Sequence record: NC_105512.1
Direction: 5' to 3' (one strand)
Length of the DNA: 64,000 nucleotides
Origin: Escherichia phage JLBYU43
In this document: positions 47,141 to 64,000 of the stretch, piece after piece
Layout of the letters: the number at the start of each line of letters is the position of its first letter
Numbering within the stretch: position 1 is the stretch's first letter
Notes under the pieces: model-generated
Databases searched by the model: none
Told to the model about the DNA's origin: nothing
Seen by the model: only the letters and a program-made list of their open reading frames with translations
Made by a program: the position numbers and the translations under genes

Positions 47141-47173
47141 ATAAAAAAGGCTCTGGGCAAATCACCCAGAGCC
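47141..47173 (-). terminator. Rho-independent terminator
   Basis: stem GGCTCTGGG/CCCAGAGCC then TTTTTTATT on minus strand. Confidence 0.65.
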
Positions 47174-47208
47174 AAGCCTCATCGTGGAACGCCCATTGGA
47201 GGAAACTT

Positions 47209-47577: not shown

Positions 47578-47638
47578 TTTAGATGCTGAGCTTTTAATAC
47601 ACTTATCTGCAAAATCAGCAACAGCATCTAGTAATTCT

Positions 47639-48939: not shown

Positions 48940-48949
48940 TATTTATTCC

Positions 48950-50347
48950 TTAAGCAGTAATGGTGATAATCTTAGTACCCTTAACACCAGAACCGTCTTT
49001 AGCTAGAGCTTGAACAGTTACTGTACCAGTCTTCGTAGCATCAGCGGATAGCATACCAGTAGTACTGATAGTAGCTGCGGTGCCACTAACGATAGACCAA
49101 GTTACAGTCTTATTAGTAGCTCCAGCAGGTTCAACAGCAACACTCATCTGAAGAGTTTGGCTATTCCGAAGAGTAGCTACATTACCAGCAGAATTAACAG
49201 TAATCTTAGTTACTGCAATGGGTCCTGATTTACCGCCGTCACCAGTTGCAATCAGATTTGCAATAGTAGTTTTGGTGTACTTATTAGAGAAACCAAGGTA
49301 ACCTTCATCACCAGTATCCAGATCAGTAGGAATTGCTTTGAATTCTACAGAAGTACCAAGTACATCGTCAGTCTCAATAGTCGGGATGTTGACGTGAGCT
49401 TGCTTAGCAACTAGAACAGCAGCAGGGCGCTCATCATCATATTCACCACCAAGTACTAGAGCTATTTCGAAACGGTTAACTACTTTCAGGGTCTTAGCTA
49501 GATCTTTGTACAGATCCATAGAACCTAGAGCTTTATCGTTAAGATACGCAGTTAGAGAACCAGTTAATTCGAATGCACCAGTGAATGAACCAATTGGGAT
49601 GTTAACACGGGACATGACGTTAGGAGTCAGATAGGTGATGTTGTTGTTGATTGTAAAGCTACCACCAGTGATCGGAATGTCATATGCCTTACCAGTATCC
49701 ATATCCTTAATTTTGAGGATAGTCAGTTTGTTCTTGATATAAGAACCCTGGATAGTCATGTAAGTTTCATCATCAATACCTACAGTATCAGGATCAAATG
49801 GAGCAGCATCCAGAGGGATCAGCTGGTTACCATTACCTGACCAAGTTACACGACCGATATCTTCAATATCAACGTTTACTTCAGCCTGGTTGATCTGACA
49901 GGAATCAATATAGCTCCATGCTCTATCAGTAAGGATGTAAATATGTAGCATTGCCAGCTCGTGGTATGCGTTATCCTTAAAGTTAACCATGAAGTTAGCT
50001 CCATTAGTGTGAGCACCTGTATCACCATCTAGGTTGATAGGCTTACCACTAGAAAGAGCATGCCACAGCATGTAGTCCGGAACGATCTGCTTACTAGTAG
50101 TCTTATCTAAGTAAGGCAGTATGTAAGTAGAGAAACTCCACTCAGCTGCGTTCAGGGAGTCGTTGAAACGTTTTGAACCACGAGTTGGACGCGGACCAGC
50201 TTCACTAACAGTAATATCGGTTGAGTTACTGTCCTGACCCCAAGAAATATCATCTTGAACTAGAATCTCTTGCGTGTTGGTCTTATTGTGACCAGTCTTA
50301 ACCGTAGACACGAAGATTCGAGTATTACGTAATAGTTGTAAAGACAT
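48950..50347 (-). CDS. major tail tube protein (pb6-like) with C-terminal Ig-like domain
   Basis: 465 aa; C-terminal Big_2-like segment. Confidence 0.75.
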   Translation of the reverse strand: MSLQLLRNTRIFVSTVKTGHNKTNTQEILVQDDISWGQDSNSTDITVSEAGPRPTRGSKRFNDSLNAAEWSFSTYILPYLDKTTSKQIVPDYMLWHALSSGKPINLDGDTGAHTNGANFMVNFKDNAYHELAMLHIYILTDRAWSYIDSCQINQAEVNVDIEDIGRVTWSGNGNQLIPLDAAPFDPDTVGIDDETYMTIQGSYIKNKLTILKIKDMDTGKAYDIPITGGSFTINNNITYLTPNVMSRVNIPIGSFTGAFELTGSLTAYLNDKALGSMDLYKDLAKTLKVVNRFEIALVLGGEYDDERPAAVLVAKQAHVNIPTIETDDVLGTSVEFKAIPTDLDTGDEGYLGFSNKYTKTTIANLIATGDGGKSGPIAVTKITVNSAGNVATLRNSQTLQMSVAVEPAGATNKTVTWSIVSGTAATISTTGMLSADATKTGTVTVQALAKDGSGVKGTKIITITA

Positions 50348-50373
50348 TTATTTATATTCTCCTAATCTGTAAC

Positions 50374-50862
50374 TTATCTGCGAAGTGACCTACGTGGAGG
50401 CTGATACCTCACTGTTACATTTATTTCCGCTAAACCATATGGGGCCAGTAGACCCTCATCTGTAGCTACTGAGGTGATGCTCATATCAGTTGCCTCACAT
50501 GGGAAGGTCGATCCATTAGGTTTACTAACAGTATATTCTAAATTTCCACCTGTGTCAATGACGGTTTTTATGTCAGCTACGAGTTTTTCCAGAGAAGTTT
50601 GAATATCACCATCTTTCTCTTTGTCATACACGAGGATTGGAAGTTCTAAAAACATCCACTGTTGGCCTGAGGGAAGATACTGCCCAGTTTCAGTTCCGAT
50701 ATGGACTGCCACATAAGGAAATTCTCGGATTTCCTCGAATTTATAAGTTTGACGAGAAACGTTTCCATAAAGGTTATTGAAATACTCGTCAGGTTGTGAA
50801 CCATCCATTTGTGTGGCGATTCGGTCAACCACTGCTTGTGCAATACTTGTTCTGTGATCCAT
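50374..50862 (-). CDS. tail terminator/completion protein
   Basis: position between neck and tube genes. Confidence 0.4.
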   Translation of the reverse strand: MDHRTSIAQAVVDRIATQMDGSQPDEYFNNLYGNVSRQTYKFEEIREFPYVAVHIGTETGQYLPSGQQWMFLELPILVYDKEKDGDIQTSLEKLVADIKTVIDTGGNLEYTVSKPNGSTFPCEATDMSITSVATDEGLLAPYGLAEINVTVRYQPPRRSLRR

Positions 50863-50865
50863 TTA

Positions 50866-51633
50866 TTAGGTTCCTTGATTAACCTTGATTTTATATCTAG
50901 AGTGAATCAGGTCTCTTGCAGCTTTTGCGATTGCTTCCCCAATAAGTTTTTGAGGGTTTCGAGCGCCAGGGTAAGGTCGTAGAGAAAGTCTTCGATATGT
51001 AGAAACTGCGGGGTTGAACACAGAGTAAGGACGAACCATATAGTTATACGTCACATTCAGCTCTGGAGCACCTTTACTAGTTTCTGCATCACGTAGCATA
51101 ACGTCTTTAATCTTTAAGGAGTTAGCAAAGCGACCAGTTCTGAACTTCAATGGTGCCCCTGCTTTTTTCATATCCTTGATTAAATATTCCTTAGCTACTA
51201 TCTCAAGAATAGCACGCATGTTACTATTTGATACGAAACGACCGGAAGCACCTGTTACTGCACCTGAATAGCCATCTTCAGTATCTCTAGGATCTCCAAA
51301 GTTTACTTGAACTCTACCGGTAGAACGTTTTTTACCAACAGCAGAACGTTTGCCTGCGGTTGCTTGAATTAAATTCTCTAGAGCGCCTAAATCACCGGAA
51401 AGATCTAAGTTAGAAGAAACAGCCTTCAGTATAGATGCTGTCCTAACATTTAATAAGTCTTGTGATACTGGTTTTGAGAATTTGAAAGATACCTGTGCAA
51501 CTGTGCCATCTCTTGTAGGATCCTTCAAACCAGTCTCAACTGTATATACAACAGTATTCTTATTATTCTCAGATCGTCCTGCAGTATCTAGCTGCTCTTT
51601 AATAATTTGTCTAGCTAGATCAGAAAGAGCCAT
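50866..51633 (-). CDS. neck/head-completion protein
   Basis: position in connector module. Confidence 0.4.
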   Translation of the reverse strand: MALSDLARQIIKEQLDTAGRSENNKNTVVYTVETGLKDPTRDGTVAQVSFKFSKPVSQDLLNVRTASILKAVSSNLDLSGDLGALENLIQATAGKRSAVGKKRSTGRVQVNFGDPRDTEDGYSGAVTGASGRFVSNSNMRAILEIVAKEYLIKDMKKAGAPLKFRTGRFANSLKIKDVMLRDAETSKGAPELNVTYNYMVRPYSVFNPAVSTYRRLSLRPYPGARNPQKLIGEAIAKAARDLIHSRYKIKVNQGT

Positions 51634-52145
51634 TACACTCTCCTATATACTTCGACGATTGTACGAATATGTTCTGGAATACCAGACTTAGTACTATTAA
51701 ACGTAATTGTCTCCCCGCCAATAGTCTTAGCTTGACGATAATCTTGCTTATGCCAGTGATCTACTAACAGGCATGCTGCCAGCTTAAGATCTTCAGGCAT
51801 TGGATTGAAACCACCTTGAGTATATTCTACATCCATATACCCTTCTGGTGGACTAAATTTAAGGAGAATAACACCATCTGGGTACAGCTTAAACTGTTCT
51901 GAGGCTATTTCATTCTCATTAATAGTCATCTTTGTAATAGATGTGGCTGAAGGAGAACTCAGGAAATATTTCCTACGGCTAGGTTTTGTGGTAATTAATT
52001 GATCTACCGCATCTGCATCATCCATACCTAGAAGGCTTGTAATCAGCGTATTGGCAGCTTTAATCATCATCTCAACCTGAGTTTCCATATCAGGACGTTT
52101 TAAATTCCCATATAGTTTATAATCTTCAACAGTGATGATTTGCAT
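51633..52145 (-). CDS. head-tail adaptor protein
   Basis: RBS AGGAAA; position. Confidence 0.45.
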   Translation of the reverse strand: MQIITVEDYKLYGNLKRPDMETQVEMMIKAANTLITSLLGMDDADAVDQLITTKPSRRKYFLSSPSATSITKMTINENEIASEQFKLYPDGVILLKFSPPEGYMDVEYTQGGFNPMPEDLKLAACLLVDHWHKQDYRQAKTIGGETITFNSTKSGIPEHIRTIVEVYRRV

Positions 52146-52160
52146 TTATTTTTCCTAATA

Positions 52161-52188
52161 ATAAAAAAGGAGAGCCGAAGCTCTCCTT
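52161..52188 (-). terminator. Rho-independent terminator after inserted endonuclease gene
   Basis: stem AAGGAGAGC/GCTCTCCTT, loop TTCG, then TTTTTTATT on minus strand. Confidence 0.7.
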
Positions 52189-52202
52189 ATCGGCTGAAAA
52201 GC

Positions 52203-52802
52203 CTAACTAAACATATAGTCATAAACTATTTCTTTTATATCTGGTAAATATTTTTCTAAACAAGTCTCAGTATACCCATCAGGTAGTAAAGCAGGTGTAA
52301 GAAAGGATGAAGGGATTATTTCCTTTACTATATTTTCTATATCTAGAGCGTACTCCTTACTATATAATTCTATAGCAAAGATTATGTTATGAGTATACTT
52401 TGAATTCTTAGACTGTTCTGAAAGTCTCTTTTCTACACTTCTAGTAGTAATCCCATACTTTAAGGCTGAGTGTGAAGTACAACTTAATTTTTGTAAATAA
52501 AAGTAAGTGGGAGTAGAGTTAGTATTTATATTCTTACAATTAGTATTTAATAAGCATCTATTTTGAAAGCATTTCGGGCATCTAGATCCATTAGTAATAA
52601 AATTACGAATACTAGGAGTCCATACATTTCCATCAATGTTACATTTAAGTTGTATTTTAGACTCTGCATTTTTAAAAGTATATACTAGTCCTTCATAAGT
52701 ATAATTCTCTTTAGTGCATATATCTAAAATCTGAGATTCTCTAATCTCGTACGGAATTGCTTTTCCAGACATTAGTGTTATATCCTTAATGTTAGTATAC
52801 AA
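52203..52802 (-). CDS. homing endonuclease-like protein (T5orf172-like) inserted between capsid and adaptor genes
   Basis: CPKC zinc motif, LKYGITTRSVEKRLSEQ; track start is TTG 52802, ATG 52772 with RBS AAGGA is the alternative. Confidence 0.5.
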   Translation of the reverse strand: MYTNIKDITLMSGKAIPYEIRESQILDICTKENYTYEGLVYTFKNAESKIQLKCNIDGNVWTPSIRNFITNGSRCPKCFQNRCLLNTNCKNINTNSTPTYFYLQKLSCTSHSALKYGITTRSVEKRLSEQSKNSKYTHNIIFAIELYSKEYALDIENIVKEIIPSSFLTPALLPDGYTETCLEKYLPDIKEIVYDYMFS

Positions 52803-52850
52803 TAGCTACTAAATATAATAGCTATTGTATACACCTCTTATAAGAGGTGT
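52795..52850. repeat. two adjacent perfect palindromes
   Basis: 14-bp inverted repeat GTATACAATAGCTA / TAGCTATTGTATAC (10-nt spacer), then 20-bp palindrome ACACCTCTTATAAGAGGTGT. Confidence 0.8.
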
Positions 52851-52859
52851 ATTTTATTA

Positions 52860-54236
52860 TTAAGATGCAGCGTAAGCACCAGATACAACGCCGTTTTCGA
52901 AGTAACGTTGCAGGTTAACACGCTGGGTAACGTAGTATGCGTCACGCTGTTTGCCAGCTTGGCGCTCACGTTCAACAGTAACGGCACGCTGACGCGGCAT
53001 TACAAAGTTATCTTTATAAACAATAACTGCGAATTCAGCGGAAGCAGCTTTAGCTGGGAAGTACTCAGAAACTACAACCGGCAGACCGTAAATACGACCA
53101 ACCTGACCCTGCAGTTTAACAGCATCGTTACCAACCTGGGCAACATCCTGCCATTCTTCATCTTCCAGCAGATCGTAGTAAGCATCCATAGATACGATCA
53201 GTACCAGTTTGCTCAGTTTCAGACCGTGACGGCCCAGTTTACGACGCAGCTTGGAGATAGTCTTAGCAGTTACCAGAACAGAACCGTCAGCTTTAGCTTC
53301 GGTAACAACCTTAGCACCATCATCAGCAGCCAGTTTCAGCAGACCCTTAGGCTGACCAGTACCATTACCGGACATGAAAGCTTCTTCGATAGAAACAGCG
53401 TGTGCTTCGATCAGACGCTTACGCAGCAGAGGCAGCAGGGAGAAGATTGCATCTTCTTCAGTTTCATCAGTGATGAAGGATTTAGCAGCCAGCTTGTAAG
53501 TTTTGAAGCTGATTTCAGTCAGTTGACCTTTAACTTCGTCACCAACAGTTTCGTCAGTACCGAATTTGGAAGCATCTACCCAAGTAGCACGACCAGCTTC
53601 TGGTTCAACGAGCATAGTAAGGATTTTGCTGGACATTGGCAGTTCATCGAACAGTGCACCAACTACCAGTTCCTTCTGCAGGTCACGGATAATACGGGTA
53701 GAGAAGATAGTTTCGTATGCTTCGCTAGACATGGAAACGGAAGAAGAACCGTTAACAGCTTTAACGTGAGCCTTACCATGTTCAGTTTCAAATACGTCCT
53801 TCTCCATCATATAAGACAGAAGAACCAGTTTTTCAACTTCATCTTCAAAAGCTTCCTGAGTACCATACAGTGCTTTAGCTACGCTATCACCGACGAAGGA
53901 ACGTCCTTCACGAGCTGCCAGCAGAGATTTGATTTCGTCCTGAAGACCAACAATAGTTTCCTGCTGTTTTTCTACAGTCTGTGCAAACAGTTCTGCGCTC
54001 TTCTTAGATTTTTCATCCAGGGATTTAACCAGTTCCAGAGCTTCTTCTAGCTTCTGACGATCTTCGCCAACTGCTTTAGAAACCAGATCATTCATACGAG
54101 CCAGTTCTTTTTCTTCCTGCTCTTTACGCATACGTTCAGCTTCAGCAGCTTTCTGAGCAGCGGTAAGACCTTCCAGAGATTTAGCCAGATCACCCAGACC
54201 AAGTTCTTCTTTCAGCTTATTAATATCAATAGTCAT
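52860..54236 (-). CDS. major capsid protein precursor (HK97 fold, pb8-like, 458 aa)
   Basis: N-terminal coiled-coil scaffold-like segment, HK97-like core; optimal codons. Confidence 0.9.
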   Translation of the reverse strand: MTIDINKLKEELGLGDLAKSLEGLTAAQKAAEAERMRKEQEEKELARMNDLVSKAVGEDRQKLEEALELVKSLDEKSKKSAELFAQTVEKQQETIVGLQDEIKSLLAAREGRSFVGDSVAKALYGTQEAFEDEVEKLVLLSYMMEKDVFETEHGKAHVKAVNGSSSVSMSSEAYETIFSTRIIRDLQKELVVGALFDELPMSSKILTMLVEPEAGRATWVDASKFGTDETVGDEVKGQLTEISFKTYKLAAKSFITDETEEDAIFSLLPLLRKRLIEAHAVSIEEAFMSGNGTGQPKGLLKLAADDGAKVVTEAKADGSVLVTAKTISKLRRKLGRHGLKLSKLVLIVSMDAYYDLLEDEEWQDVAQVGNDAVKLQGQVGRIYGLPVVVSEYFPAKAASAEFAVIVYKDNFVMPRQRAVTVERERQAGKQRDAYYVTQRVNLQRYFENGVVSGAYAAS

Positions 54237-54253
54237 TTTTAAATAATTCTCCG

Positions 54254-54886
54254 TTATTCTTTAACGTAGCCTAAAGCTATCGCAAGTTTTTCTAGTTCAG
54301 AAAGATTACGTTCTTGAGCTGGGACAGCTTTAGAACTTATTGCAGTAAAAGATTTACGCCATTCAGTATAATCATGACCATTCATACTCTTAGCGAGGTT
54401 GAATGTTGAGTCCTGATTACAAGGTACAGAAACTACCGAAACTTCGTATAGTTCTAAATCTTTAATAATAAATATATCAGTAGCTTCATCCCACTCTGCA
54501 TCTAGGCAGCGGAATCCGATACTAAAAGTTTTCAGTACACCGTTTTTAATTAGTGAAAAGATAGCCGGATCAGAACTTTCATAGATCTCGCATTCGATTT
54601 CGAGACCCATTTCAGTAGGGTTAAGATCAATACACTTGCCGATTGGACGACGATGGTCGTGTCCGAAAAGAATAATCGGGTTTTTCATGTAGTTAGCAAG
54701 TGCATTAGATGTTTTCCATGCCGAAGCAGGAATTACATCACCAGCGCGATCTTTACTAATTGTATTAGCGAATCCACGGATTTTTACAACACCCTCTTTG
54801 GATTCGCTATCAATAGATTTAATATAAGCATCTAAATGAACCGGTGCTGATTTTAACTTGTTATAGTCAATAGCAGCTTGTGTCAT
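54254..54886 (-). CDS. prohead protease (pb11-like, 210 aa)
   Basis: HK97-family protease pattern with GHDH. Confidence 0.8.
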   Translation of the reverse strand: MTQAAIDYNKLKSAPVHLDAYIKSIDSESKEGVVKIRGFANTISKDRAGDVIPASAWKTSNALANYMKNPIILFGHDHRRPIGKCIDLNPTEMGLEIECEIYESSDPAIFSLIKNGVLKTFSIGFRCLDAEWDEATDIFIIKDLELYEVSVVSVPCNQDSTFNLAKSMNGHDYTEWRKSFTAISSKAVPAQERNLSELEKLAIALGYVKE

Positions 54887-54889
54887 TTA

Positions 54890-55378
54890 TTAGCCTCCAA
54901 CACCAGGTGCAGTTGGGGTAGCTTTTACTGCTGCAGACTTAGTAGATTCTCCCGCCCCATTAACAGCTACTGCCTGGAAAGTATACTCTTTTGCTTCTAG
55001 GGTAGAAATAGTACCTGTTTTAGAAGACCCAGAATTATGGGTTTTTGGAGTAGTTCCATCAGTATAGTATACTTTATACTGGGTGATTGGTGAGCCGGTA
55101 TTAGTACCATCAGTAATTGTATAAGTTACTGAGTTTTCACCCGGAGTTACCTGCAACGTAGGGGCTCCAGGGACAACGTCTACTGGACCAGCCTTACCAT
55201 AAGCCTCTACAAATTTCTTCCATACTTTGCGGTTAGTATGCGCAGATGAAAGTCCCAATTCTCTACGCAGAAAAGCATAGCTAGGAACATATTTATGCGC
55301 AGCAACCGTAGCAAAGAAGATATGAGATTCTGGCAGTTTTTCACCAAAAATGGTCTTTAGACCACTATAATCAATCAT
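54890..55378 (-). CDS. head decoration protein (pb10-like)
   Basis: C-terminal Ig/FN3-like Thr/Gly-rich domain. Confidence 0.55.
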   Translation of the reverse strand: MIDYSGLKTIFGEKLPESHIFFATVAAHKYVPSYAFLRRELGLSSAHTNRKVWKKFVEAYGKAGPVDVVPGAPTLQVTPGENSVTYTITDGTNTGSPITQYKVYYTDGTTPKTHNSGSSKTGTISTLEAKEYTFQAVAVNGAGESTKSAAVKATPTAPGVGG

Positions 55379-56592
55379 TCTTTATCTCCCTCGGTGGAAC
55401 CTTGAGGTCTACCACCTTCTTGACCAGATACGCCTGTTGCAGAACCAGCAACGTTAGCAGGAATACGAATCTTATTCATCTGCTCATCATCTAAAGGTTC
55501 AAGGTTCAGCTCTAAACGAGCTTCGTTACCAGTTATAATACCATTATTAACCAATGAGGTTAAATGTTTAGCCTCAGATTCTTTATCTGGTGTTAATGCA
55601 GCTACTTCCTTAGTATTAGGAGTAATCTTATAACCAAAAAAGAAAGTAAGAGAACTAGTCAGTTTGTTCAGCATAGGGATGATAGTCATATAATAGAACA
55701 GTTCGATGTTTGGTCGAATGTTCGCATTATTACCCCCATCAAGTAGCACCTGCGGAACACCAAAGGCTAGACAGATAGATTTATTAAATCCTTCGATGTC
55801 TTCCTTAAAGTCTAGATCTTTAAAAGAGGATATTTGGGAGTACGGTTTAGCTTTCATACCACCATCTAGAATCAGGACAGAGGACTGACCAGTACTAGGA
55901 TTATAATCTAGTTGTAATTCTTCTTGTTTACGCTCACGCAATTTCTTGTTCAGGATTTCATCCGTCTCAAGAATAAGACCAATCACGGTTCCGTTATCTA
56001 GGAACTTCTCTTTAAAGTTAAGCATCTTAGAACGCTTCTCCAGAGAATCAATAACAGTAGCAACACGAGATTGTCCAGAAATTTGAGAATTTGTGCCGCA
56101 CACGTAACTGTTATCCTTTATAAAGATAATCTCATCTACGCGATAGTCTATCTGATTATTAAATATAAATTTTTTGATAAACTTATTGGCATCTGCCTCT
56201 ACTTGCATTAATGCAGCAGGGACATGGTAAAGTGCTGTGCCATCCCAATAGATGTATGCACAACCTTCAAAAAGTAGGTCAGTGACTACAAGTCTACGGA
56301 ATGTGCTTATATCCATGAATGGATTAGGTCGTACATTTAAGAGAGTGTCTAGAGTCTTTGCCTTGACGCCGTTAGCGTACGTGACAATATTATATTTATC
56401 TCCGACAGTATAAGAACACTCCGCCGCACTATCTATAACCATATTAGCAGTTCTATTGAGAATCTCAATTTTACTGTAGGCTTGTCCAGTGGTAAAAGGC
56501 TTACGGTTAGTGCGATGACTAACTGGTTCCATGTCTCTTATAATACGTTGACCCGGATTTAGCTTTTCAGTAATCCAGCTTTTAAAACCCAT
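55375..56592 (-). CDS. portal protein (pb7-like, 405 aa)
   Basis: size and position between terminase and protease. Confidence 0.8.
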   Translation of the reverse strand: MGFKSWITEKLNPGQRIIRDMEPVSHRTNRKPFTTGQAYSKIEILNRTANMVIDSAAECSYTVGDKYNIVTYANGVKAKTLDTLLNVRPNPFMDISTFRRLVVTDLLFEGCAYIYWDGTALYHVPAALMQVEADANKFIKKFIFNNQIDYRVDEIIFIKDNSYVCGTNSQISGQSRVATVIDSLEKRSKMLNFKEKFLDNGTVIGLILETDEILNKKLRERKQEELQLDYNPSTGQSSVLILDGGMKAKPYSQISSFKDLDFKEDIEGFNKSICLAFGVPQVLLDGGNNANIRPNIELFYYMTIIPMLNKLTSSLTFFFGYKITPNTKEVAALTPDKESEAKHLTSLVNNGIITGNEARLELNLEPLDDEQMNKIRIPANVAGSATGVSGQEGGRPQGSTEGDKE

Positions 56593-57029
56593 TATAAGAA
56601 CCTTGCGAATCCTGATTTTGTTTCAGTCTTGACTTGTGTCTTTTCTTGAGGATTCTGTAATTTGTCTTTCTGCTTTTGAACCCACACTTTTTGCTTATTA
56701 GCAGAAAATAAAGGAGGTTCTTTTGTGTAAACCTTATGTAATAATTGGTGATGATGCTGGCATAATGTTACTACGTCTCTAACTAATTCATGCTCATATT
56801 TCTTATAGAATGCTTCCCTATTTGAAAGGACGATATTCTCATCAGTGAAATCCAGCTGGAGTTCTTTAGCAAAATTTTTAATTAGTTGAGATATAGTATG
56901 ATAGTGATGAAGTTCTAGGGCTTCATCACTACCGCATATAGCACAGCAACCATCCTTACTATACCTAGATTTTATACCATCCCTCATTATGGAAATGGCA
57001 TCACGTTTGTACTTAGTATTAGTGGCCAT
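56592..57029 (-). CDS. HNH endonuclease
   Basis: CAICGS...LELHHYH...CQHHHQLLH; ATG 57029 with RBS GGAGG. Confidence 0.7.
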   Translation of the reverse strand: MATNTKYKRDAISIMRDGIKSRYSKDGCCAICGSDEALELHHYHTISQLIKNFAKELQLDFTDENIVLSNREAFYKKYEHELVRDVVTLCQHHHQLLHKVYTKEPPLFSANKQKVWVQKQKDKLQNPQEKTQVKTETKSGFARFL

Positions 57030-57693
57030 ATTCCTCCAATCCAAAGTTACTTAGAAAGACTACTATATCCTCTGGAGCAACATTAAAAAATTCTGTGCTT
57101 CCTGTAAATTTTGAAAACCCACAGTTTTTATTATAATATTCTCTATGGACTTCTTTTTCTAAATCTAGAGCAGTTTCTCTATCAGGTAAGTGATACGTGG
57201 TAAATAAGTATAGATCTGAAAATCCAGACTCTCTTTTAACCTCGTTCAATCGCTTCTCGGGGTATAAACTTATACCTACTTTAGTACCCATAGAAGAGGA
57301 CATGATATAGAGAAATCCACCATTATCCCATTTAAGGGAGCAATAAGGACATCTTCTACCTTGCGTCAACCCATCTAAGGTAATATAGCATTCATGACCA
57401 TTATTACAGCGTAGATGTAGTTTTGTTTTTGCATTAGTATAGTTATTTAACAGTGTATACCCTATACTGGATATCCTGTTATTAACTTCATCTAGCAATA
57501 TAGTATTAGGTGCGCAGTGTGGGCAACCCCTCTTAATATGGAGTATAGAATGTGGCGTTGCTTCCCAAACGTGTGCTCTTTGGCACTTAAATACTGTTTT
57601 TGTACGTTGGTTTACATATTCACCGACAATTTGGATTCCACGATCAGCTAATCTAGTATTTATATCTTTTATTGTTAGCTTTTGTCGACCCAT
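57019..57693 (-). CDS. homing endonuclease-like protein (zinc-finger repeats + T5orf172-like domain)
   Basis: CPHC/CPYC motifs, C-terminal GTKVGISLYPEKRL...EFFNV; paralog of 3881-4744. Confidence 0.6.
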   Translation of the reverse strand: MGRQKLTIKDINTRLADRGIQIVGEYVNQRTKTVFKCQRAHVWEATPHSILHIKRGCPHCAPNTILLDEVNNRISSIGYTLLNNYTNAKTKLHLRCNNGHECYITLDGLTQGRRCPYCSLKWDNGGFLYIMSSSMGTKVGISLYPEKRLNEVKRESGFSDLYLFTTYHLPDRETALDLEKEVHREYYNKNCGFSKFTGSTEFFNVAPEDIVVFLSNFGLEEYGH

Positions 57694-57826
57694 AGAATCT
57701 CCTACACTCCGTATAGAGCACTAATTTTTCTTGTTTACGTTCTATTAGGGGAGAAGTTCTCCCGATCAATGAATATAGTATACATAATCATGTCGAATTT
57801 GTAAAGGGGATTTTAAAATGCAGGAA

Positions 57827-57852
57827 TGGGATACCAACTGAGTAGTATCCCA
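57827..57852 (-). terminator. hairpin downstream of terminase gene
   Basis: 8-bp stem TGGGATAC/GTATCCCA; weak U-tract. Confidence 0.3.
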
Positions 57853-57864
57853 TCCTATACTTAC

Positions 57865-59181
57865 TTATTTACCACGGGAAATAGAGTAAATTCCGTAGCG
57901 CAGCGCATCACAAAGGTGAGAGTTAGCATCATGACGTGGTTTTTCACGTGATAATTTTTCCTCACCTTCTTGGAAATCCCACTTATAGTTCTGCAATGCA
58001 TGGATTAGTGAGGAACATGAAGCATCTACAATAATCTTACCCTGTTGGAATAGTGCTTGTAAACATGCTAGACCGTCTAGGACAGACTTTTTAGCTGGAG
58101 CTGATGCAATTTCATGTTCATAGGCTAAGTCCTGGCGGAACTGAGCTGCGGCAGAGTCAACAAAAACACGATCAACTTTATAGCGATCTATGCAGTGCTG
58201 AATATAAGCAGCATGCTGAGCTGTAGTTTTCTCTGCCTGCTGGTACTCTTCTAGTACATAGTAAGTATCTGTATCATAATGATACTTGATAGTAAGAACT
58301 GCTGTAGGATCACGATAACCAACGTCAATACCAAGCAACGTTTCGAATGCTTCATCATCTTTAAAGAAGTGACGCATACCTTTAAGGTCTTTAACATGAT
58401 CAATAGCATTAAAGGTATCAAAGATCTGACCTTCGAATACAGAGAAGTCAGCCTCGTATTCTTGGCGGAAGTAGTTTTTACTAACAGTACGACGTGCTTC
58501 CTCAATATCATTCAGGTCAGCACGTGGATTATCACGATATGTACCATGAATAGATACCCAGTTAGGCAACGTATCATCAAACCCATAGGCATAAAATTCT
58601 TTAAACCAGTTACCGCCACGAGGGGTAGAGATAAATAGAGCCTTAGAATTAGGTTTATCTAGGGTAGGACGCAACTGAACCCTGAAGGCATCACCACCCA
58701 CATCAGAAATTGCCGCCTCGTCAAAGATGATAAAGTCATATGAACGTCCAACTGCGGAGTCAGCCTGAGCTGCAGAAGCTAGTTTAAACAGTGAGCCGTT
58801 TGCCAACTCAATTTCTTTATCTTTAGCATTCTCACGTTCAGTTTGTAGGCCGTACTTTTTAATAAGACCACGAATCTGAGACCACCCGATGTTGGCCAGT
58901 GAGTAGTTAGGGGCAACTACTAGCACCTTCACATTAGGTTCCAGCAATTTTAGGAACCCAAGGGTATACGCGATGAAGGATTTACCTACACGGCGTGATA
59001 CACACGCTGTTACAAAACGATGTCTAGGGTCCTCTAGAGCATTAATAATTGCTATTTGAGGACCATTAGGTGTAATACCTTCTTGTGCTAGTATTCCCGA
59101 AACAGGTAGACGAAAGAAACGTTTATCTATTCCGAAATCAATAACATCTACTGTGTTAACGTAGGGTCTTGATACTTCCAT
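57865..59181 (-). CDS. terminase large subunit (438 aa)
   Basis: Walker A VSRRVGKS, C-terminal nuclease fold. Confidence 0.9.
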   Translation of the reverse strand: MEVSRPYVNTVDVIDFGIDKRFFRLPVSGILAQEGITPNGPQIAIINALEDPRHRFVTACVSRRVGKSFIAYTLGFLKLLEPNVKVLVVAPNYSLANIGWSQIRGLIKKYGLQTERENAKDKEIELANGSLFKLASAAQADSAVGRSYDFIIFDEAAISDVGGDAFRVQLRPTLDKPNSKALFISTPRGGNWFKEFYAYGFDDTLPNWVSIHGTYRDNPRADLNDIEEARRTVSKNYFRQEYEADFSVFEGQIFDTFNAIDHVKDLKGMRHFFKDDEAFETLLGIDVGYRDPTAVLTIKYHYDTDTYYVLEEYQQAEKTTAQHAAYIQHCIDRYKVDRVFVDSAAAQFRQDLAYEHEIASAPAKKSVLDGLACLQALFQQGKIIVDASCSSLIHALQNYKWDFQEGEEKLSREKPRHDANSHLCDALRYGIYSISRGK

Positions 59182-59663
59182 TACTTCTTACCTCCCGTAG
59201 CTAGGGAAGTAATTAAGTCCATATAGTTTTGATCCCCAGCTCCAGCAATAATATTATTCTGGATGTTGGTCTGATTGGCTGGAGTACGGGCTGCTGCCTT
59301 CACTTTCTCCAATTCTACCATCATTTTCATCTCTTCCATCTTCATTTTATGTGCTTTCCAGAGAATATCCATAATATCTTGGTCAGAACCCATGCCGGTT
59401 TCTTCCAGTTCCTCCAGCTTACGCTTAATAACTTCATCCAGAACACCGAACAAACGGTCTCTGTTACGGAAACCACTCTCCATAAAAATATCATTTAAGT
59501 AGTTCTTAACTTCACTACGATTCATAATATCTCGGAAAGCAATTTCTGACATTCCAAGACTACGTGCGGCAGAAGGCACATCGCTGCCACACTGTAAATA
59601 AGCTTCAATCACATCCATCCCTTCAGGGGACATAAGATCTGGTACTAATACATCATTTGCCAT
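59181..59663 (-). CDS. putative terminase small subunit
   Basis: HTH-like [20 protein letters not shown]; immediately upstream of TerL. Confidence 0.45.
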
Positions 59664-59673
59664 ATTTCCTCCT

Positions 59674-61431
59674 TTAGGTAAGGCGTTGAACTGTTACTCT
59701 TAATCTAGGTAGGAAAACCGCACTACCTAAACTTACGTGCATAACTACCCCTAACTCTACATTCCCATTTCCTAGATTTTTAACTGTATATATGAAACTA
59801 TTCCTACTTAGTGCGTTATTAGGTGTGTATCTAAATGCAGATGTAGTATGAAATGGTACTAAGTAACCTACAGGTAGCGTTAAAATCTGGTGGAATATTG
59901 CATCTCCATTACTATAGCTATAAGCCCTTCTTCCCTGCACCTGAAATACACCGTTATTCCATGTATTAGCCGGAACACCTGCACAGTTAAGATTACCAGA
60001 TATAACTTCAGTAGTAAGAATAACAGTAGCATTACCTCCTGGAATTCCTAGTCCAATAGTAGATAGAGCCACGTATCTATCTCCAGTTCCGGGGTAGTAA
60101 GGAGTAATATCATCTCCCATGTAAGAACTACCAACATTTCCACTAAAAAGTCTCAGAGGAACTGAAGAAGGTCCCCAAACAACACCATGTTCGTTACCAA
60201 TAGTATTATTACTTGAGTTTACGTACCATTGCTTACCAGCTCCGAATTTGTAAATACTAATTTGAGACTTAGCCCCTCCATAGTCTACAGGAGACCATAA
60301 ACTCCCGTTACTAGAACCTACAAGTTCGCACCTTGCGGTGGTATCTCCAAAGGCTCCAGTGTACGCTGCGTTATTTCCGACGTATTCCATATCTGGCCTA
60401 TAACCTAAGTTACCAAAAGCATTCTGGTTAATAAACTTATACCCAGTATTAGGAAGACTAACCCCTTTTATAGTAAAATTAGAGGGTGAGATAAGAATAT
60501 CTGAACCAGTAAAAGGATTACCAGAGATACCCATATTACCATTAGAATACCTCAGATTAAGTACATACCAAATAACCTTAGTAGGAGTTATGTTATACCA
60601 ATCCTGTAGTATTGTAGAATCACCAGATTGATTAGCTAAATTAGTTGTAGAACCCCTACAAACAAATCTGTTACCCCCATCGTGGTACATAGTATTTACA
60701 TTGCCAGGAAGACCTTGTCTTACCCCGCCATACCCACGTATGTTAGAGCTACAAACATAGAACCAATCGTGTCCTCTGTGTGCTGATCCTAAAGGAGACA
60801 TCCATCCCGGGTCCCAGTAATATTGGTTATTACCATCTATAGGTACTGTACTACTATTAGTAGGAAAACCCAACTGTGCAAAAGCTTTTGCAACAGTAAT
60901 ACCTACTGGAGCTTCTGCACCTGGCCTAACTATACCATGATAAGTACTATGTAGGGTAGTTCCCCCAGTACCATTTCTAGAGATAGATTCTTCATGCCCT
61001 ATAGATGGGTTATAGTTATATGTTCCAGATGCCAGGCTATTACCAAATGCAAATCCACTAGTTTGGGAAACGCTAGCAAAAGATCTAAAAGGATCTGCTT
61101 GAGTGGCAACTATAGTTTGACCAACTTTACTCTGAGTACCATTAAGAAAAGCTCTGTGAGTACCATTTATCTCAATAGCAGTTAGTATAACTCTACCAGG
61201 ATCGTTAGATTTAATATTTATTATGTCAGCGGGCATTTGACATACAAAAAACCCATTACCGGCATCACCTAATCCAGACTCATAAGTACCATCAACTAGG
61301 ACGAAAGGCATATCGGAGTGGAAGATACTATTAGTATTTGGAGAATAGTGCTCACCAGTATCACCACCATTAGCAGCGTTTAGAGATAATACAGTTTTAC
61401 CATCACTAAATTTTCCTGCGAAAAAACTCAT
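59674..61431 (-). CDS. receptor-binding tail protein (pb5-like, 585 aa)
   Basis: N-terminus MSFFAGK; divergent orientation to llp; RBS AAGGAGA. Confidence 0.7.
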
Positions 61432-61455
61432 ACAATCTCCTTCTTTAAAAATGTA

Positions 61456-61484
61456 TTTGCTTAGATCCCTCTATTTTGCTATAA
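61456..61484 (+). promoter_or_regulatory. promoter for llp
   Basis: TTGCTT-17-TATAAT. Confidence 0.6.
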
Positions 61485-61514
61485 TATATTTATAAATTAA
61501 ACAGAGGAACGATT

Positions 61515-61781
61515 ATGAAAAAGTTACTAGCTATCGTAGTTGCAGCAGTAGTGTTGACTGGTTGTGTACCAGCTCCCGAGCCATTCTGTAAGGCATACGT
61601 GAAGTCTTATGGACATGTTGGTGAAGAACACTACGCTTTAGATATTCGAGAAGCACGTACTGTGGGCTACCGATTCCCTAAAACTCAGTTACGCACTAAG
61701 TTTGGGTGGTGGGATTTGTCACAGTTTGATCTCAAATATGGTGATTGCAAATTTAAACTAGAACAATCTGGTCACTTGTAA
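61515..61781 (+). CDS. llp: Llp-like lipoprotein (superinfection exclusion)
   Basis: signal peptide with lipobox LTGC; RBS GAGGAA; divergent from RBP gene. Confidence 0.7.
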   Translation: MKKLLAIVVAAVVLTGCVPAPEPFCKAYVKSYGHVGEEHYALDIREARTVGYRFPKTQLRTKFGWWDLSQFDLKYGDCKFKLEQSGHL

Positions 61782-62110
61782 TTAGTATAAAGTAAAAAGA
61801 TCTCGAAGTAAACAAAAATTTTTATTTCTGGGATGAGGTACAGGTAGCAAACACAATGCAAGATGAAGAAAAGTCCTTTCAGGAACCTGTTAACTTTGAA
61901 ATAAATCCCAGGAATAAAAAGCAATACATGATGCAATTGATGAAATCATTCAAGACGTCATAGAAGATACAGTAGAAGACGTGATGGGAACATCCTTCTT
62001 ACTAGAAGAATCCGGCTTCGACGAAGTAATGGATCTAATCGGGACAGTCGTAATGGTTCGTGCAATTGCTAGGGTATTCCAAATACCAGGACTACAGGAG
62101 AAGCAAAGAG

Positions 62111-62650
62111 ATGTCAGACGATAATAGAAGAAGGCAAGAGGAATTAAAAAGACTCTATGACTATAATCCAGAGACGGGAATTTTTATCCAGAAAACTACA
62201 CGTGGAGGTAAAATAGCAGGTAGTATTGCTGGATCACTCCACTCTAGTGGGTATATACATATAAGGTTTGAGGGCAAGCCTCAGAAAGCACATAGATTAG
62301 CCTTCCTATTTATGGAAGGATATATCCCAGAAGAAGTTGATCATATAAATAGAGTACGTAATGATAATAGATGGACTAACTTAAAAGAATCCTCCAGGTC
62401 TGAAAACAATAGTAATGTAAAACGTAAAAACAAATCTGGATATTCAGGAGTTCACTGGAATAAGAGAGATTTAGGATGGCAAGTCACCATTAGGAAAAAG
62501 GGAATTAGTTATTCAAATGGATTTTTTGAATACTCTGAACTACCACAAGCGGTTGAAGCTGCTAATAAACTTAGGTTAGATTTATATGGCAAATCAGCTC
62601 TGATAGAAGAATTCGACGGAAAGTTACCAAGTATTGAGGATTTAGTATGA
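62111..62650 (+). CDS. HNH homing endonuclease with AP2-like domain
   Basis: ATG 62111 with RBS AGGAGAA; VDHINR...NRWTNL. Confidence 0.7.
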   Translation: MSDDNRRRQEELKRLYDYNPETGIFIQKTTRGGKIAGSIAGSLHSSGYIHIRFEGKPQKAHRLAFLFMEGYIPEEVDHINRVRNDNRWTNLKESSRSENNSNVKRKNKSGYSGVHWNKRDLGWQVTIRKKGISYSNGFFEYSELPQAVEAANKLRLDLYGKSALIEEFDGKLPSIEDLV

Positions 62651-62751
62651 AAAAGGTAATAGATGCGTGGATAAATAGTTTCGGATTCGGAACTGTATTA
62701 TTCTTTATCTTTGTACTCTTTTGGTTAGCAGCTATGGCGGGGTGGATTTAA
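62647..62751 (+). CDS. tiny membrane protein 1 (34 aa)
   Basis: ATGA overlap with HNH stop; hydrophobic FGFGTVLFFIFVLFWLAAMAGW. Confidence 0.35.
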   Translation: MKKVIDAWINSFGFGTVLFFIFVLFWLAAMAGWI

Positions 62752-62906
62752 TGGAATGGGTAATTATTGGCATATTCGTCTTATTGATACTTCTCTTTGT
62801 AGGCTTACGTGTAATAGATACCTCTGTAACCCAAACAGAAATTAAATTAATGCAGTTGAGCAATAGATTATCTAGAATTGAAACTTTATTAGAGGAGCGT
62901 AAATAA
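62751..62906 (+). CDS. tiny membrane protein 2 (51 aa)
   Basis: TAATG overlap; RBS GGGGTGGA; MEWVIIGIFVLLILLFVGL...RIETLLEERK. Confidence 0.45.
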   Translation: MEWVIIGIFVLLILLFVGLRVIDTSVTQTEIKLMQLSNRLSRIETLLEERK

Positions 62907-63013
62907 TGGAATGGGTAATTATTGCACTACTGGGGATTGTGATTATTGGGCAGTGTATTCTAGATAATCACTTAGCTAGAATTGAAACCTTACTATCGGA
63001 GAAACGTAAATGA
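62906..63013 (+). CDS. tiny membrane protein 3 (35 aa)
   Basis: TAATG overlap; first 19 nt identical to protein 2; RIETLLSEKRK. Confidence 0.4.
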   Translation: MEWVIIALLGIVIIGQCILDNHLARIETLLSEKRK

Positions 63014-63204
63014 TGGAAGTGGCAATTACACTAATGGTAATATTAGTCTGGGTAATCCTCATTGTCTCTCGTATCGTGTATCTCCGCCTAAAAACTCTAG
63101 AAGCCCAGGTAAAACAACAACAAGTTATTCTAGAAAAGCTAGTACTACTGCAACGTTGTGATAGCACCCGTATTCTGCAAATTGAGAGGGAATTAGATGT
63201 TTAG
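63013..63204 (+). CDS. tiny membrane protein 4 (63 aa)
   Basis: TGATG overlap; MEVAITLMVILVWVILIV then coiled charged tail. Confidence 0.45.
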   Translation: MEVAITLMVILVWVILIVSRIVYLRLKTLEAQVKQQQVILEKLVLLQRCDSTRILQIERELDV

Positions 63205-63421
63205 TATTGTAATTGCTTTTATTATCGGGATACTCGCGGGAGTTTTCGGGACGACTGCGGCAATTAACAAGCATCGTAAATATATTGCGGGAGTGTCGCG
63301 GGAAATTGCGGAAAGGGAGCGGAAGTTTGATGAGAAACGTGCGGAGTTTGAGCGAGAATGGTCGGATGGATCTCGGGCGTCGCGGAGGAGATTTAGGGCA
63401 AAGGTGAGCGATGAAGAATAA
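63197..63421 (+). CDS. tiny membrane protein 5 (74 aa), GC-rich codons
   Basis: RBS GAGAGGGAA; FSIVIAFIIGILAGVF then Arg/Glu-rich tail; gcg/cgg/ggg codons atypical for this genome. Confidence 0.45.
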   Translation: MFSIVIAFIIGILAGVFGTTAAINKHRKYIAGVSREIAERERKFDEKRAEFEREWSDGSRASRRRFRAKVSDEE

Positions 63422-63947
63422 CTTAAGTATACAGGACATAGAAGAAGCATTTGCTTATGATCCCGAAACTGGAGTTTTCACCTGGAAAAGCGGCAATCGT
63501 AAGGATAAAGAAGCAGGTACTTTAAATAGGGGGTATAGGCAGCTTAAATATCGAGGATTTAAAGCTTATGCACATCAAGTAGCTTTTGTTATTATGGAAA
63601 ATAGGTGGCCAGAGGAATGTGTAGACCATATAGATAGGAATAAGCTAAATAATAGGTGGTCAAATCTGCGAGAAGCTACAATTACGGAAAATAATCGTAA
63701 CGGTAGAACCTCAAAAACATCCTCAGGCTACCTAAATGTTACGTGGCATAAGGGACTTCAGAAATGGATGGTAAGATTACATGATAAGCATGGACTTATA
63801 AATGGTACTACTAAGTATTTTTCCTATGACAGATTGGAAGACGCAGTAAATTATGCGAATTTACTAAGAAAGAAATTTCATGGCAGCTTTGCAGTACAAG
63901 AGGCATTCAAAGGGAATATACCAGATGTTGTTCAGTTAAACAGTTAA
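63411..63947 (+). CDS. HNH homing endonuclease with AP2-like domain
   Basis: RBS AAAGGTGAG; VDHIDRNKLNNRWSNL; C-terminal half similar to 20707-21240. Confidence 0.7.
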   Translation: MKNNLSIQDIEEAFAYDPETGVFTWKSGNRKDKEAGTLNRGYRQLKYRGFKAYAHQVAFVIMENRWPEECVDHIDRNKLNNRWSNLREATITENNRNGRTSKTSSGYLNVTWHKGLQKWMVRLHDKHGLINGTTKYFSYDRLEDAVNYANLLRKKFHGSFAVQEAFKGNIPDVVQLNS

Positions 63948-64000
63948 TTAGCACTAAAATGACTTTTGCCAAATTCTTTGGATTACGTACGCGTGGGTGG

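Follow-up and report, generated by a model that had tools for sequence, protein, structure and literature searches.

The window analysed here, a 64,000-nucleotide stretch of Escherichia phage JLBYU43 (NC_105512.1), contains a receptor-binding protein (RBP) gene and a divergent lipoprotein gene (llp). Very likely, these genes encode an RBP of the BtuB class and an Llp that blocks the same receptor, and the pair is recombinant; receptor use is predicted from relatives. Judged by its sequence, the RBP-Llp pair is the known BtuB-class module of T5-like phages (Markadamsvirinae) and not a new receptor class. The new detail is that, according to the sequence comparisons, the module is a recombinant of two known variants.

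Overall organization of the RBP-llp locus

The RBP and lipoprotein ORFs, a 585-aa one and a divergent 88-aa one as the earlier note had described, are both present in the ORF list (Table 1). They are real genes and not chance ORFs, as the products match PHROG 4815 ("receptor binding tail protein"; RBP residues 1-585, E 2.5e-271) and PHROG 1119 (Llp, E 1.2e-23) over their full length. The two start codons face apart and are separated by 83 bp in our reading of the sequence. The same arrangement, with the RBP gene immediately upstream of terS/terL and divergent from llp, is found in AKFV33, faergetype, DT57C, T5, and BF23.

Table 1 Features of the RBP-llp locus and its surroundings (positions in the window)
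Feature	Coordinates	Strand	Basis or remark
terL	57865-59181		ORF list
terS	59181-59663		ORF list
RBP gene (pb5/Hrs homologue, predicted BtuB class), 585 aa	59674..61431	-	ORF list; product starts MSFFAGK
AKFV33/Bas31-type RBP part, codons ~48-585 (core and predicted receptor-binding distal half)	59674..61288	-	
EPS7/faergetype-type RBP 5' end, codons 1-~43	61303..61431	-	
Epseptimavirus-type recombination patch, ~1.45 kb, in Tequintavirus-like backbone	61303..~62745		
Divergent regulatory region, RBP gene/llp	61432..61514	both strands	read from sequence
RBP gene RBS AAGGAG	61437-61442	-	
llp -35 TTGCTT	61457-61462	+	sequence reading
llp -10 TATAATA	61480-61486	+	17-nt spacer after -35
llp RBS GAGGA	61504-61508	+	
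llp, EPS7/Epseptimavirus allele, 88-aa lipoprotein precursor	61515..61781	+	ORF list; starts MKKLLAIVVAAVVLTGC
Llp signal peptide	codons 1-16	+	
Llp lipobox L14-T15-G16-C17	61563-61565 (codon of lipid-modified Cys17)	+	
Free-standing HNH homing-endonuclease gene	62060..62650	+	Pfam HNH_3, E 3.2e-13; likely start ATG ~62111

The RBP is homologous to T5 pb5, with the PDB chains 8b14_B and 8a8c_B matching at E 1.7e-47. A Pfam search with the RBP gave no match, and an exact-protein look-up in the protein collection found no record. The product has the MSFFAGK start and diverges quickly from T5 pb5, as first noticed, with an identity of ~31-33%, and it is indeed shorter (585 versus 640 aa; T5.157, 108427-110349). 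In an alignment of ten RBPs, the invariant columns are located in the N-terminus (M1, F4, G6 and on to I36-M41), the region 283-335, and the C-terminal QRLT, and residues 46-300 form the most variable part. This pattern of conserved apical elements and a variable distal half agrees with the published pb5 analysis, in which residues 1-37 of T5 pb5 belong to the pb4-binding subdomain and residues 37-45 form a linker (bioRxiv 10.1101/2022.09.22.509047). The HMMER alignment of the two proteins is collinear across RBP codons 1-~43.

The intergenic stretch is almost invariant across five phages, and both of its strands carry annotated promoters in the T5 and BF23 records. The llp promoter, identified by eye and by conservation, fits the T5 consensus TTGCTT-N17-18-TATAATA, which is annotated at the same place in AKFV33. 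A generic sigma-70/terminator scan of 61250-62150 returned one weak antisense site only and no terminator. The scan missed the llp promoter because TTGCTT shares three of six positions with TTGACA.

The lipoprotein and its allele

The Llp precursor starts with MKK-LLAIVVAAVV-LTGC, containing the lipobox signal peptide that had been pointed out before, and after its removal 72 aa remain. Residues 1-17 match Pfam LPAM_1 (E 0.0025; at 18.6 bits slightly short of the 20-bit cut-off), and Phage_lipoprotein matches below threshold (E 0.022); T5 Llp has no Pfam match. The proposal of an Llp-type lipoprotein holds, as PHROG 1119 also covers the full length of T5 Llp (E 1.1e-19) and BF23 Llp (E 1.8e-26). 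Pairwise BLASTP against T5 Llp is not significant (E 0.059). An identical (100%) Llp is found in at least 132 phage records, including Bas26 GreteKellenberger and Bas30 TrudiRoth, and identity is 99% to EPS7, 68% to BF23, AKFV33, and Bas31, and 21% to T5.

Cysteines C17, C25, and C78 do not vary among 11 homologues. The latter two correspond to mature positions 9 and 62; BLASTP pairs C25 with T5 C26 (mature C11), and C78 is retained throughout the alignment containing T5 Llp. In T5 Llp, the C11-C58 disulfide is intramolecular and needed for receptor binding. C25 and C78 are a conserved pair like that of T5 Llp and would form a corresponding, putative bond. The AF2 model of Llp has a pLDDT of 82.7, and AF2 is known to be inaccurate on free Llp. 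Using this model, Foldseek found no match with E < 0.2 in the PDB, T5 Llp not being retrieved, and its BFVD matches were limited to the phiR2-01 blocker (E 1e-10) and a CEC_Kaz_2018 SE protein (E 2e-3), again without T5 Llp. A PDB sequence search with Llp gave nothing, even at E 10. Since T5 Llp is not retrieved by fold, a mechanism shared with it rests on the profile match and the cysteine pattern.

The 88-aa protein is thus predicted to be a receptor-blocking, superinfection-exclusion lipoprotein. When the DT57C/BF23-type Llp is expressed, BtuB phages plate more than 100-fold less efficiently and T5 is unaffected (PMC4728585); the BF23/DT57C allele, with which this blocking was demonstrated, is 68% identical to the EPS7-type allele present here. 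The two alleles might not be equivalent, and their swap might be adaptive, changing the hosts whose BtuB is blocked or the competitors that are excluded. In line with this, the EPS7-type Llp occurs mainly in Epseptimavirus (mostly isolated on Salmonella) and the BF23-type mainly in Tequintavirus, and the allele differences are concentrated in mature residues 1-40. However, the EPS7-type is also carried by the E. coli K-12 isolates Bas26 and Bas30, so it is not limited to Salmonella phages. Moreover, the target of Llp is the receptor rather than the RBP, so a protein that blocks BtuB should exclude every BtuB phage, and the DT57C Llp excluded BF23 (PMC4728585). We therefore regard an adaptive swap as unlikely.

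The RBP gene is a mosaic

Informative sites divide the RBP gene into two parts. Left of position 61288, 109 of 114 sites are AKFV33/Daisy-type, and right of 61303, 228 of 243 are faergetype-type, placing the left breakpoint at 61288-61303, inside the RBP gene at codons 43-48. In 100-nt windows, the DNA of the larger part is 91-100% identical to AKFV33 versus 50-85% to faergetype. The protein follows the same division: over residues 46-585, identity is 97-99% with AKFV33 and 96-97% with Bas31, and residues 1-45 are closer to faergetype (93%) than to AKFV33 (80%). The patch, which comprises RBP codons 1 to ~43, the promoters, llp, ~1 kb of downstream sequence, and the HNH gene, is 96-98% identical to faergetype up to ~62745, beyond which the sequence is ECOP18-like at 91-100%. 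The terminase side is AKFV33-type (Tequintavirus). Aligned to T5 pb5, the imported 5' end encodes the N-terminal strand that belongs to the pb4-binding apical subdomain, together with the linker.

Over the 32 loci used for comparison, the Llp allele always varies together with RBP residues 1-45, and only JLBYU43 joins an AKFV33-type body to an EPS7-type N-terminus and Llp. The combination of AKFV33-type body and EPS7-type patch was found in no phage of the searched collections, and the exact 56-mer spanning the left junction is absent from IMG/VR. The earlier note regarded the pair as a swappable host-range and exclusion cassette. The module is of a well-described kind. In JLBYU43 the pair did not arrive as one cassette: a breakpoint falls within RBP codons 43-48. 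Because each parental allele serves BtuB and the crossover falls in the linker that follows the pb4-binding strand, the recombinant should be fully functional.

Such a mosaic could also arise in assembly, if at conserved stretches the contig jumped from one of two co-occurring T5-like phages to the other; the combination would then exist in no real phage. Both breakpoints do fall in conserved sequence, the combination is absent from other records, and the exact RBP is absent from the protein collection. Assembly k-mers are usually longer than ~13-14 bases, and at the left breakpoint representatives of the parental types share only ~13-14 identical bases on each side of a mismatch, a stretch shorter than such k-mers. 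In addition, every ORF is intact and in frame across the mosaic. The patch has a boundary at either end and contains a homing-endonuclease gene, a natural driver of such patches that is established for T-even phages and would act likewise here. The same kind of natural recombinant is documented in the isolates DT57C and BF23 (PMC4728585). An artefact thus appears very unlikely, and we take the mosaic as natural recombination.

Origin of the recombination patch

The HNH gene is inserted within the patch, at the 5' end of a small membrane-protein gene. Neither faergetype nor ECOP18 contains its body (62121-62650); Salmonella phage Tennessee does, at 97.9% identity and with a homing-endonuclease annotation. 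As the HNH gene lies inside the imported patch, the patch most likely originated by gene conversion tied to endonuclease homing, a reading on circumstantial grounds.

A broader reading, which we put forward only tentatively, is that the RBP-Llp pair, described as inherited only as an entity, is routinely split by HNH-linked gene conversion. The endonuclease adjoining llp would have moved the Epseptimavirus llp allele, the promoters, and the pb4-docking RBP N-terminus into a Tequintavirus, leaving the receptor-binding RBP body behind. If so, homing endonucleases would drive the shuffling of host-range and exclusion modules. The two Llp alleles might then have different exclusion ranges.

Receptor class of the RBP

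The RBP is 97% identical to ORF158 of AKFV33 and 95% identical to that of the BASEL phage Bas31 DaisyDussoix, which is listed under BtuB in the BASEL table. Identity to other BtuB phages is 72% (DT57C), 67% (BF23), and 57% (phiR2-01). The receptor of DT57C was identified as BtuB by genetics (PMC4728585), and phiR2-01 is a BtuB phage (PMC8624392). In an identity matrix and NJ tree, the RBP adjoins AKFV33 and Bas31 in the BtuB cluster, far from T5, FFH1, and H8 (~30% identity). Such clusters, three in T5-like phages, predict the receptor (BASEL paper, PMC8594841). In addition, a 2026 screen describes 23 BtuB-binding Demerecviridae with RBPs ~30% identical to pb5. Among the phages sharing the identical Llp, Bas26 is BtuB-dependent, and the btuB dependency of Bas30 was confirmed by complementation (BASEL).

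The earlier note had held that the receptor could not be assigned from sequence, and comparison with relatives refines this point. As the RBP is close to Bas31 within the BtuB cluster and the neighboring Llp is an allele of BtuB phages, identical to that of Bas26 and Bas30, the receptor is assignable, and we predict with high confidence that it is BtuB. The broader expectation of a receptor other than FhuA is borne out by this position in the BtuB cluster, as is the mention of BtuB and FepA as precedents, of which BtuB fits. A high identity to T5 pb5 and Llp, named beforehand as evidence against the proposal, was looked for and is absent. An FhuA class was rejected on the low identity to both T5 proteins (31-33% for pb5 and 21% for Llp), and a FepA class on that to the H8 RBP (27% by BLASTP, 30% in the multiple alignment; the H8 sequence compared is a 637-aa ORF upstream of terS).

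FhuA has been proposed for Cit2, whose RBP is 95% identical to that of JLBYU43 (PMC12980165). The Cit2 RBP is only 30% identical to genuine T5 pb5, which conflicts with this proposal, and in the Llp tree of the same paper Cit2 is located beside SPC35 and BF23, i.e., with the BF23-type allele. The FhuA labels given to this RBP type by some records and one paper are probably wrong. It is extremely improbable that the RBP binds FepA, FhuA, or a new outer-membrane protein instead of BtuB: the distal half does vary inside the BtuB cluster (residues 46-300 only 57-71% identical to BF23 and DT57C) and the Cit2 proposal points to FhuA, but residues 46-585 are as close to BtuB-listed Bas31 as given above, the FhuA and FepA types are only 27-31% identical, the Llp next to it is an allele that BtuB-dependent phages carry, and the Cit2 proposal is contradicted by the comparison with genuine pb5.

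Proposed mode of action

From homology to pb5 and the receptor phenotypes of RBPs that are 57-95% identical, the following mechanism may be proposed for a BtuB-binding RBP. A single copy of the RBP would sit at the end of the central tail fibre, docking on the pb4 spike through its conserved N-terminus and apical loops. The variable distal half would bind the vitamin-B12 transporter BtuB in the outer membrane irreversibly, and this binding would lead to tail opening and DNA ejection. Llp would in turn bind BtuB and render it unusable for further phage adsorption, so that the infected cell is spared superinfection and progeny are not lost on cell debris. Llp may act by periplasmic "jamming" of the receptor, by analogy with T5 Llp on FhuA, the only pair for which jamming has been demonstrated.

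The module itself is ordinary and already known, and recombination between hrs and llp was previously reported for DT57C. The predicted BtuB receptor is of use in cocktail design, as resistance through btuB loss would be common to many BtuB-dependent T5-like phages. The junction adds a further natural case in which receptor-binding body, tail-docking N-terminus, and exclusion lipoprotein appear separately exchangeable, a property useful for host-range engineering of T5-like phages.

Comparison with known systems

Hrs and Llp of BF23, studied by Mondigler et al. in 1996 and 2006, are the prototype BtuB-specific module of T5-like phages. BF23 (genome OR083247) has the same gene order and divergent orientation upstream of terS/terL, the same PHROG families (67% identity for the RBP and 68% for Llp), a likewise 88-aa Llp, and the BtuB class. 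It differs in its RBP of 595 aa, only 57% identical in the distal half (residues 46-300), and in carrying the other (Tequintavirus) Llp allele. AKFV33 ORF158 and the Bas31 RBP likewise have 585 aa, whereas identity is only 80% in the first 45 residues and 68% for the Llp of these phages, which is of the BF23 type. In the group of EPS7, faergetype, Bas26, and Bas30, Llp is 99-100% identical, and the intergenic region with the first ~43 RBP codons is 92-99% identical in DNA. The RBP of this group, in contrast, has 593 aa and a body of 65-74% identity by segment (~68% over residues 46-585), and faergetype lacks the HNH gene downstream of llp.

T5 pb5 (Oad; structures 8B14, 8A8C) belongs to the same RBP family and occupies the same genomic position. 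It shares the conserved apical half, with MSFFAGK...IFHSDM at the N-terminus, WYV.NL... in the centre, and QRLT at the C-terminal end. T5 Llp (77 aa; FhuA-Llp structure, PMC9586334) is, as Llp of JLBYU43, a small outer-membrane lipoprotein of PHROG 1119 with a Cys pair. T5 differs in the length of pb5 (640 aa), in identity (31-33% for pb5, 21% for Llp), and in its receptor, which is FhuA rather than the BtuB predicted here.

The closest precedent for the recombination is provided by DT57C and DT571/2, which combine a BtuB-type RBP of divergent body with an Llp almost the same as that of BF23 (PMC4728585). The recombination point in DT57C was set between hrs and llp, and its Llp still blocks (Golomidova et al. 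2016, PMC4728585). In JLBYU43, by comparison, the crossover lies within the RBP gene, the imported allele is that of Epseptimavirus, and the patch contains a homing-endonuclease gene.

Gene layout and identity of the pair

The receptor-binding protein (RBP, a tail-tip homologue of T5 pb5/Hrs) and the receptor-blocking lipoprotein (Llp) are encoded by divergently transcribed genes whose start codons lie 83 bp apart. The ORF listing reproduces exactly the interval 59674-61781 and the MSFFAGK start proposed in the earlier note, and the LTGC lipobox it described in the adjacent divergent 88-aa ORF is present, with the Cys17 codon at 61563-61565. Both ORFs can be taken as real genes, because the RBP matches PHROG 4815 ("receptor binding tail protein") over its full length (E 2.5e-271) and the 88-aa protein matches PHROG 1119 (E 1.2e-23). 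All sequence-testable features of the pb5/Hrs RBP family and the Llp/Cor lipoprotein family are found in the pair. The T5 proteins measure 640 aa (pb5, in line with the note) and 77 aa (Llp).

The llp promoter agrees with the T5 promoter consensus, for which the authors of AKFV33 give an annotation at the same place, and the intergenic stretch is nearly invariant in an alignment of five phages. In the T5 and BF23 records, promoters are annotated on both strands of this region. A generic sigma-70 scan did not report the TTGCTT-TATAATA site. T5 llp is reported as early-expressed (Decker et al. 1994).

Features of the RBP-llp region and its surroundings
Feature	Coordinates	Strand	Description
150-aa ORF	56592-57044	-	Cys/His motifs; position of T5.153/SciA nicking endonuclease
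224-aa ORF	57019-57693	-	T5orf172/MUG113 and zinc-finger domains (GIY-YIG-like endonuclease relatives)
Large terminase gene	57865-59181		Downstream of RBP gene
Small terminase gene	59181-59663		Downstream of RBP gene
RBP gene	59674..61431	-	585-aa ORF, starts MSFFAGK; PHROG 4815 match
llp promoter	-35 61457-61462; -10 61480-61486	+	TTGCTT, 17-nt spacer, TATAATA, then GAGGA and llp ATG; in 83-bp intergenic stretch
llp	61515..61781	+	88-aa ORF, starts MKKLLAIVVAAVVLTGC; PHROG 1119 match
Split small ORF	61857-62124		Downstream of llp; 35 aa (MQDEEKSF...), then 47-aa ORF 61981-62124
HNH_3 homing-endonuclease ORF	62060-62650		Likely start ATG ~62111; about 280 bp downstream of llp; HNH_3 E 3e-13
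Second HNH_3 ORF	63411-63947		178 aa; Pfam E 1.1e-12

Receptor class of the RBP

The 2.1-kb RBP-llp module has DNA-level matches in 342 phage records. At the protein level, the RBP is closest to AKFV33 ORF158 (97% identity) and Bas31 DaisyDussoix (95%), followed by DT57C and faergetype (both 72%), BF23 (67%) and phiR2-01 (57%). Identity falls to about 31-33% for T5 pb5 and 27-30% for the RBP of H8. In a neighbour-joining tree of ten RBPs, it adjoins AKFV33 and Bas31 within a cluster holding every tested BtuB phage, apart from the FhuA cluster (T5, FFH1) and the FepA representative H8.

BtuB is the receptor of BF23 (PMC10644984), of phiR2-01 (PMC8624392) and of DT57C, the last from btuB mutations in resistant clones (PMC4728585). 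The BASEL collection table likewise lists BtuB for Bas26, Bas30 and Bas31, with btuB complementation given for Bas30 (PMC8594841 supplements), and its authors state that three RBP clusters predict the terminal receptor (PMC8594841). In addition, a 2026 genome-wide screen reported 23 BtuB-binding Demerecviridae with RBPs about 30% identical to pb5. The identities and tree, the phenotypes of the relatives and the cluster statement together assign the RBP to a predicted BtuB class.

This alignment against FhuA-, BtuB- and FepA-type RBPs, which the earlier note had proposed, places the protein in the BtuB cluster at 57-95% identity to its tested members. It supports the reading of a pb5-like RBP with an Llp-type blocker and a receptor other than FhuA (31-33% to T5 pb5, 21% to T5 Llp). 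Of the two precedents named there, BtuB is supported and FepA is not (27-30% to the H8 RBP); the view that the receptor cannot be assigned from sequence gives way, since comparison with relatives predicts BtuB.

The lipoprotein

At least 132 phage records, among them those of faergetype, Stitch, Bas26 and Bas30, carry a protein 100% identical to the window Llp. The Llp shares 99% identity with EPS7, 68% with the BF23/AKFV33/Bas31 protein, 65% with phiR2-01 and 21% with T5 Llp, and pairwise BLASTP against T5 Llp is not significant (E 0.059). PHROG 1119, from which the RefSeq name "Cor superinfection exclusion protein" derives, is matched full length by the T5, BF23 and window proteins. Two cysteines other than the lipid-modified Cys17, namely Cys25 and Cys78, do not vary in 11 of 11 homologues from a search of 5.8 billion proteins; they are the counterparts of the C11-C58 disulfide pair in mature T5 Llp (PMC9586334; bioRxiv 10.64898/2026.03.26.714494). 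A Foldseek search of the AlphaFold model (pLDDT 82.7) gave no significant match in the PDB; its hits in predicted viral structures were limited to the phiR2-01 blocker (E 1e-10) and a superinfection-exclusion protein of phage CEC_Kaz_2018 (E 2e-3).

Function has been demonstrated with the sister allele: when DT57C llp, one residue away from BF23 llp, is expressed, DT57C, DT571/2 and BF23 plate more than 100-fold less efficiently and T5 is unaffected (PMC4728585). Receptor blocking by the window Llp is predicted by analogy. Its mechanism may resemble that of T5 Llp, which binds FhuA at its plug and periplasmic face and causes two extracellular loops to turn inwards and cover the site for pb5 (PMC9586334).

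In the unannotated draft record of phage H8 (AC171169), no lipoprotein ORF of at least 50 aa occupies 6613-6736, immediately beside the 637-aa RBP gene; the next listed ORF (6736-7062) is homologous to the small ORF that follows llp in the window. A draft-sequence error could explain this, or the FepA type may truly lack llp or have it elsewhere.

A recombination junction within the RBP gene

The closest relatives of the window RBP carry the other Llp allele, and phages with an identical Llp carry a 70%-identical RBP. In three- to five-way DNA alignments, the window follows AKFV33 over 57950-61288 (91-100% in 100-nt windows, vs 50-94% to faergetype). Since 109 of 114 sites separating AKFV33 and Bas31 from faergetype are AKFV33-type in 60900-61288, and 228 of 243 separating sites are faergetype-type from 61303 rightwards, the left crossover falls within 61288-61303, which corresponds to RBP codons 43-48 and the conserved ...VLVDGTYE... 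patch. An assembly artefact is an unlikely source of this mosaic, as identity between the parental types at the left junction runs to only about 13-14 bases either side of a mismatch. To the right, faergetype-like DNA (96-98%) extends to about 62745, beyond which the sequence resembles the Tequintavirus ECOP18 (91-100%). Bounded in this way, the patch is about 1.45 kb of Epseptimavirus-type DNA within a Tequintavirus-like backbone.

The apical subdomain that extends the pb4 spike is built in T5 pb5 from residues 1-37 together with three internal loops; residues 37-45 are a linker, and the variable distal half carries the receptor contacts (bioRxiv 10.1101/2022.09.22.509047). Because the HMMER alignment with pb5 is collinear over the first 140 residues, the imported piece would comprise the tail-docking N-terminal strand and linker on this subdomain map. 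Residues 46-585 are 97-99% identical to AKFV33 and 96-97% to Bas31, and all parts predicted to touch the receptor belong to this allele. The recombinant pair should be functional, because both Llp alleles come from BtuB phages and Llp acts on the receptor.

Linkage was surveyed in GenBank isolates and IMG/VR, 32 loci in total. An AKFV33-type body (residues 46-585 at least 93.7% identical) occurs at 16 of them, each time with an 80-82% identical N-terminus and a BF23-type Llp (66-69%); an EPS7-type Llp occurs at five, each time with a 93%-identical N-terminus and a 66-69% identical body. By this co-occurrence, the N-terminus and llp travel together, the body being the exchangeable unit.

Endonuclease genes around the module

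The stretch 62121-62650, absent from faergetype and ECOP18, shares 97.9% identity with a gene that carries a homing-endonuclease annotation in Salmonella phage Tennessee. Its insertion site, inside the Epseptimavirus-type patch, is the 5' end of a gene for a small single-TM membrane protein. Converted flanks around a free-standing homing-endonuclease gene are what homing with co-conversion classically leaves behind. The patch therefore likely arose in this way, and the HNH ORF inside it may have driven the process.

The second HNH_3 ORF is common to ECOP18 (91% DNA identity; a putative homing endonuclease there) and is absent at that position in faergetype and Tennessee. On the other side of the module, the 224-aa ORF, placed between terL and the portal side, has syntenic counterparts in AKFV33 (orf155) and T5 (T5.154, "endonuclease"). 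With the 150-aa ORF there and the HNH genes opposite, endonuclease genes thus flank the host-range module on both sides. The small ORF downstream of llp is also split in faergetype, owing to a 2-nt difference from Tennessee (one annotated 101-aa ORF) and H8 (a 108-aa ORF). Possibly the gene is frameshifted or has become a pseudogene.

Relation to known phages

No INPHARED record (August 2025 release) exceeds 92% over the junction-spanning 421 nt or 91.8% over the first 110 RBP residues, IMG/VR lacks a 56-mer that spans the junction, and the public assembly collections searched have no entry for the exact RBP. For the RBP-llp module, the phage collection searched has no relative above about 92%. 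For the last 20 kb (44000-64000), the August 2025 INPHARED release contains no phage above about 90% DNA identity at a coverage of 78% or more; the best matches are the Tequintavirus phages SHSML-45, ECOP18, SA001 and AKFV33. The phage is probably an undescribed Tequintavirus-like species.

Two published labels look wrong by comparison. The RBP of Citrobacter phage Cit2 (OP745948, 8561-10318) is 95% identical to the window RBP and only 30% to T5 pb5. It was reported as 96.9% identical "to T5", with FhuA inferred and RBP-Llp "decoupling" described; the other identities given, 67-73% to BtuB phages and 27.7% to H8 (PMC12980165), fit a BtuB-type RBP. Phage Sepoy (MK728825) has a 70%-identical RBP annotated "FhuA receptor-binding tail protein".

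By homology, the pair is placed as a BF23/EPS7-class (BtuB) host-recognition and exclusion module. This class is already known, first described in 1996-2006 and present in hundreds of genomes; what appears new is solely that these alleles, unrecorded together so far, are combined and have a homing-endonuclease gene associated with them. In DT57C, a divergent hrs stands beside a BF23-like llp; this phage was described as a recombinant whose junction falls within the "functional module" of Mondigler et al. 2006, and its Llp was shown to work still (Golomidova et al. 2016; PMC4728585). It thus provides a precedent for recombination within the RBP-llp module, as in the window.
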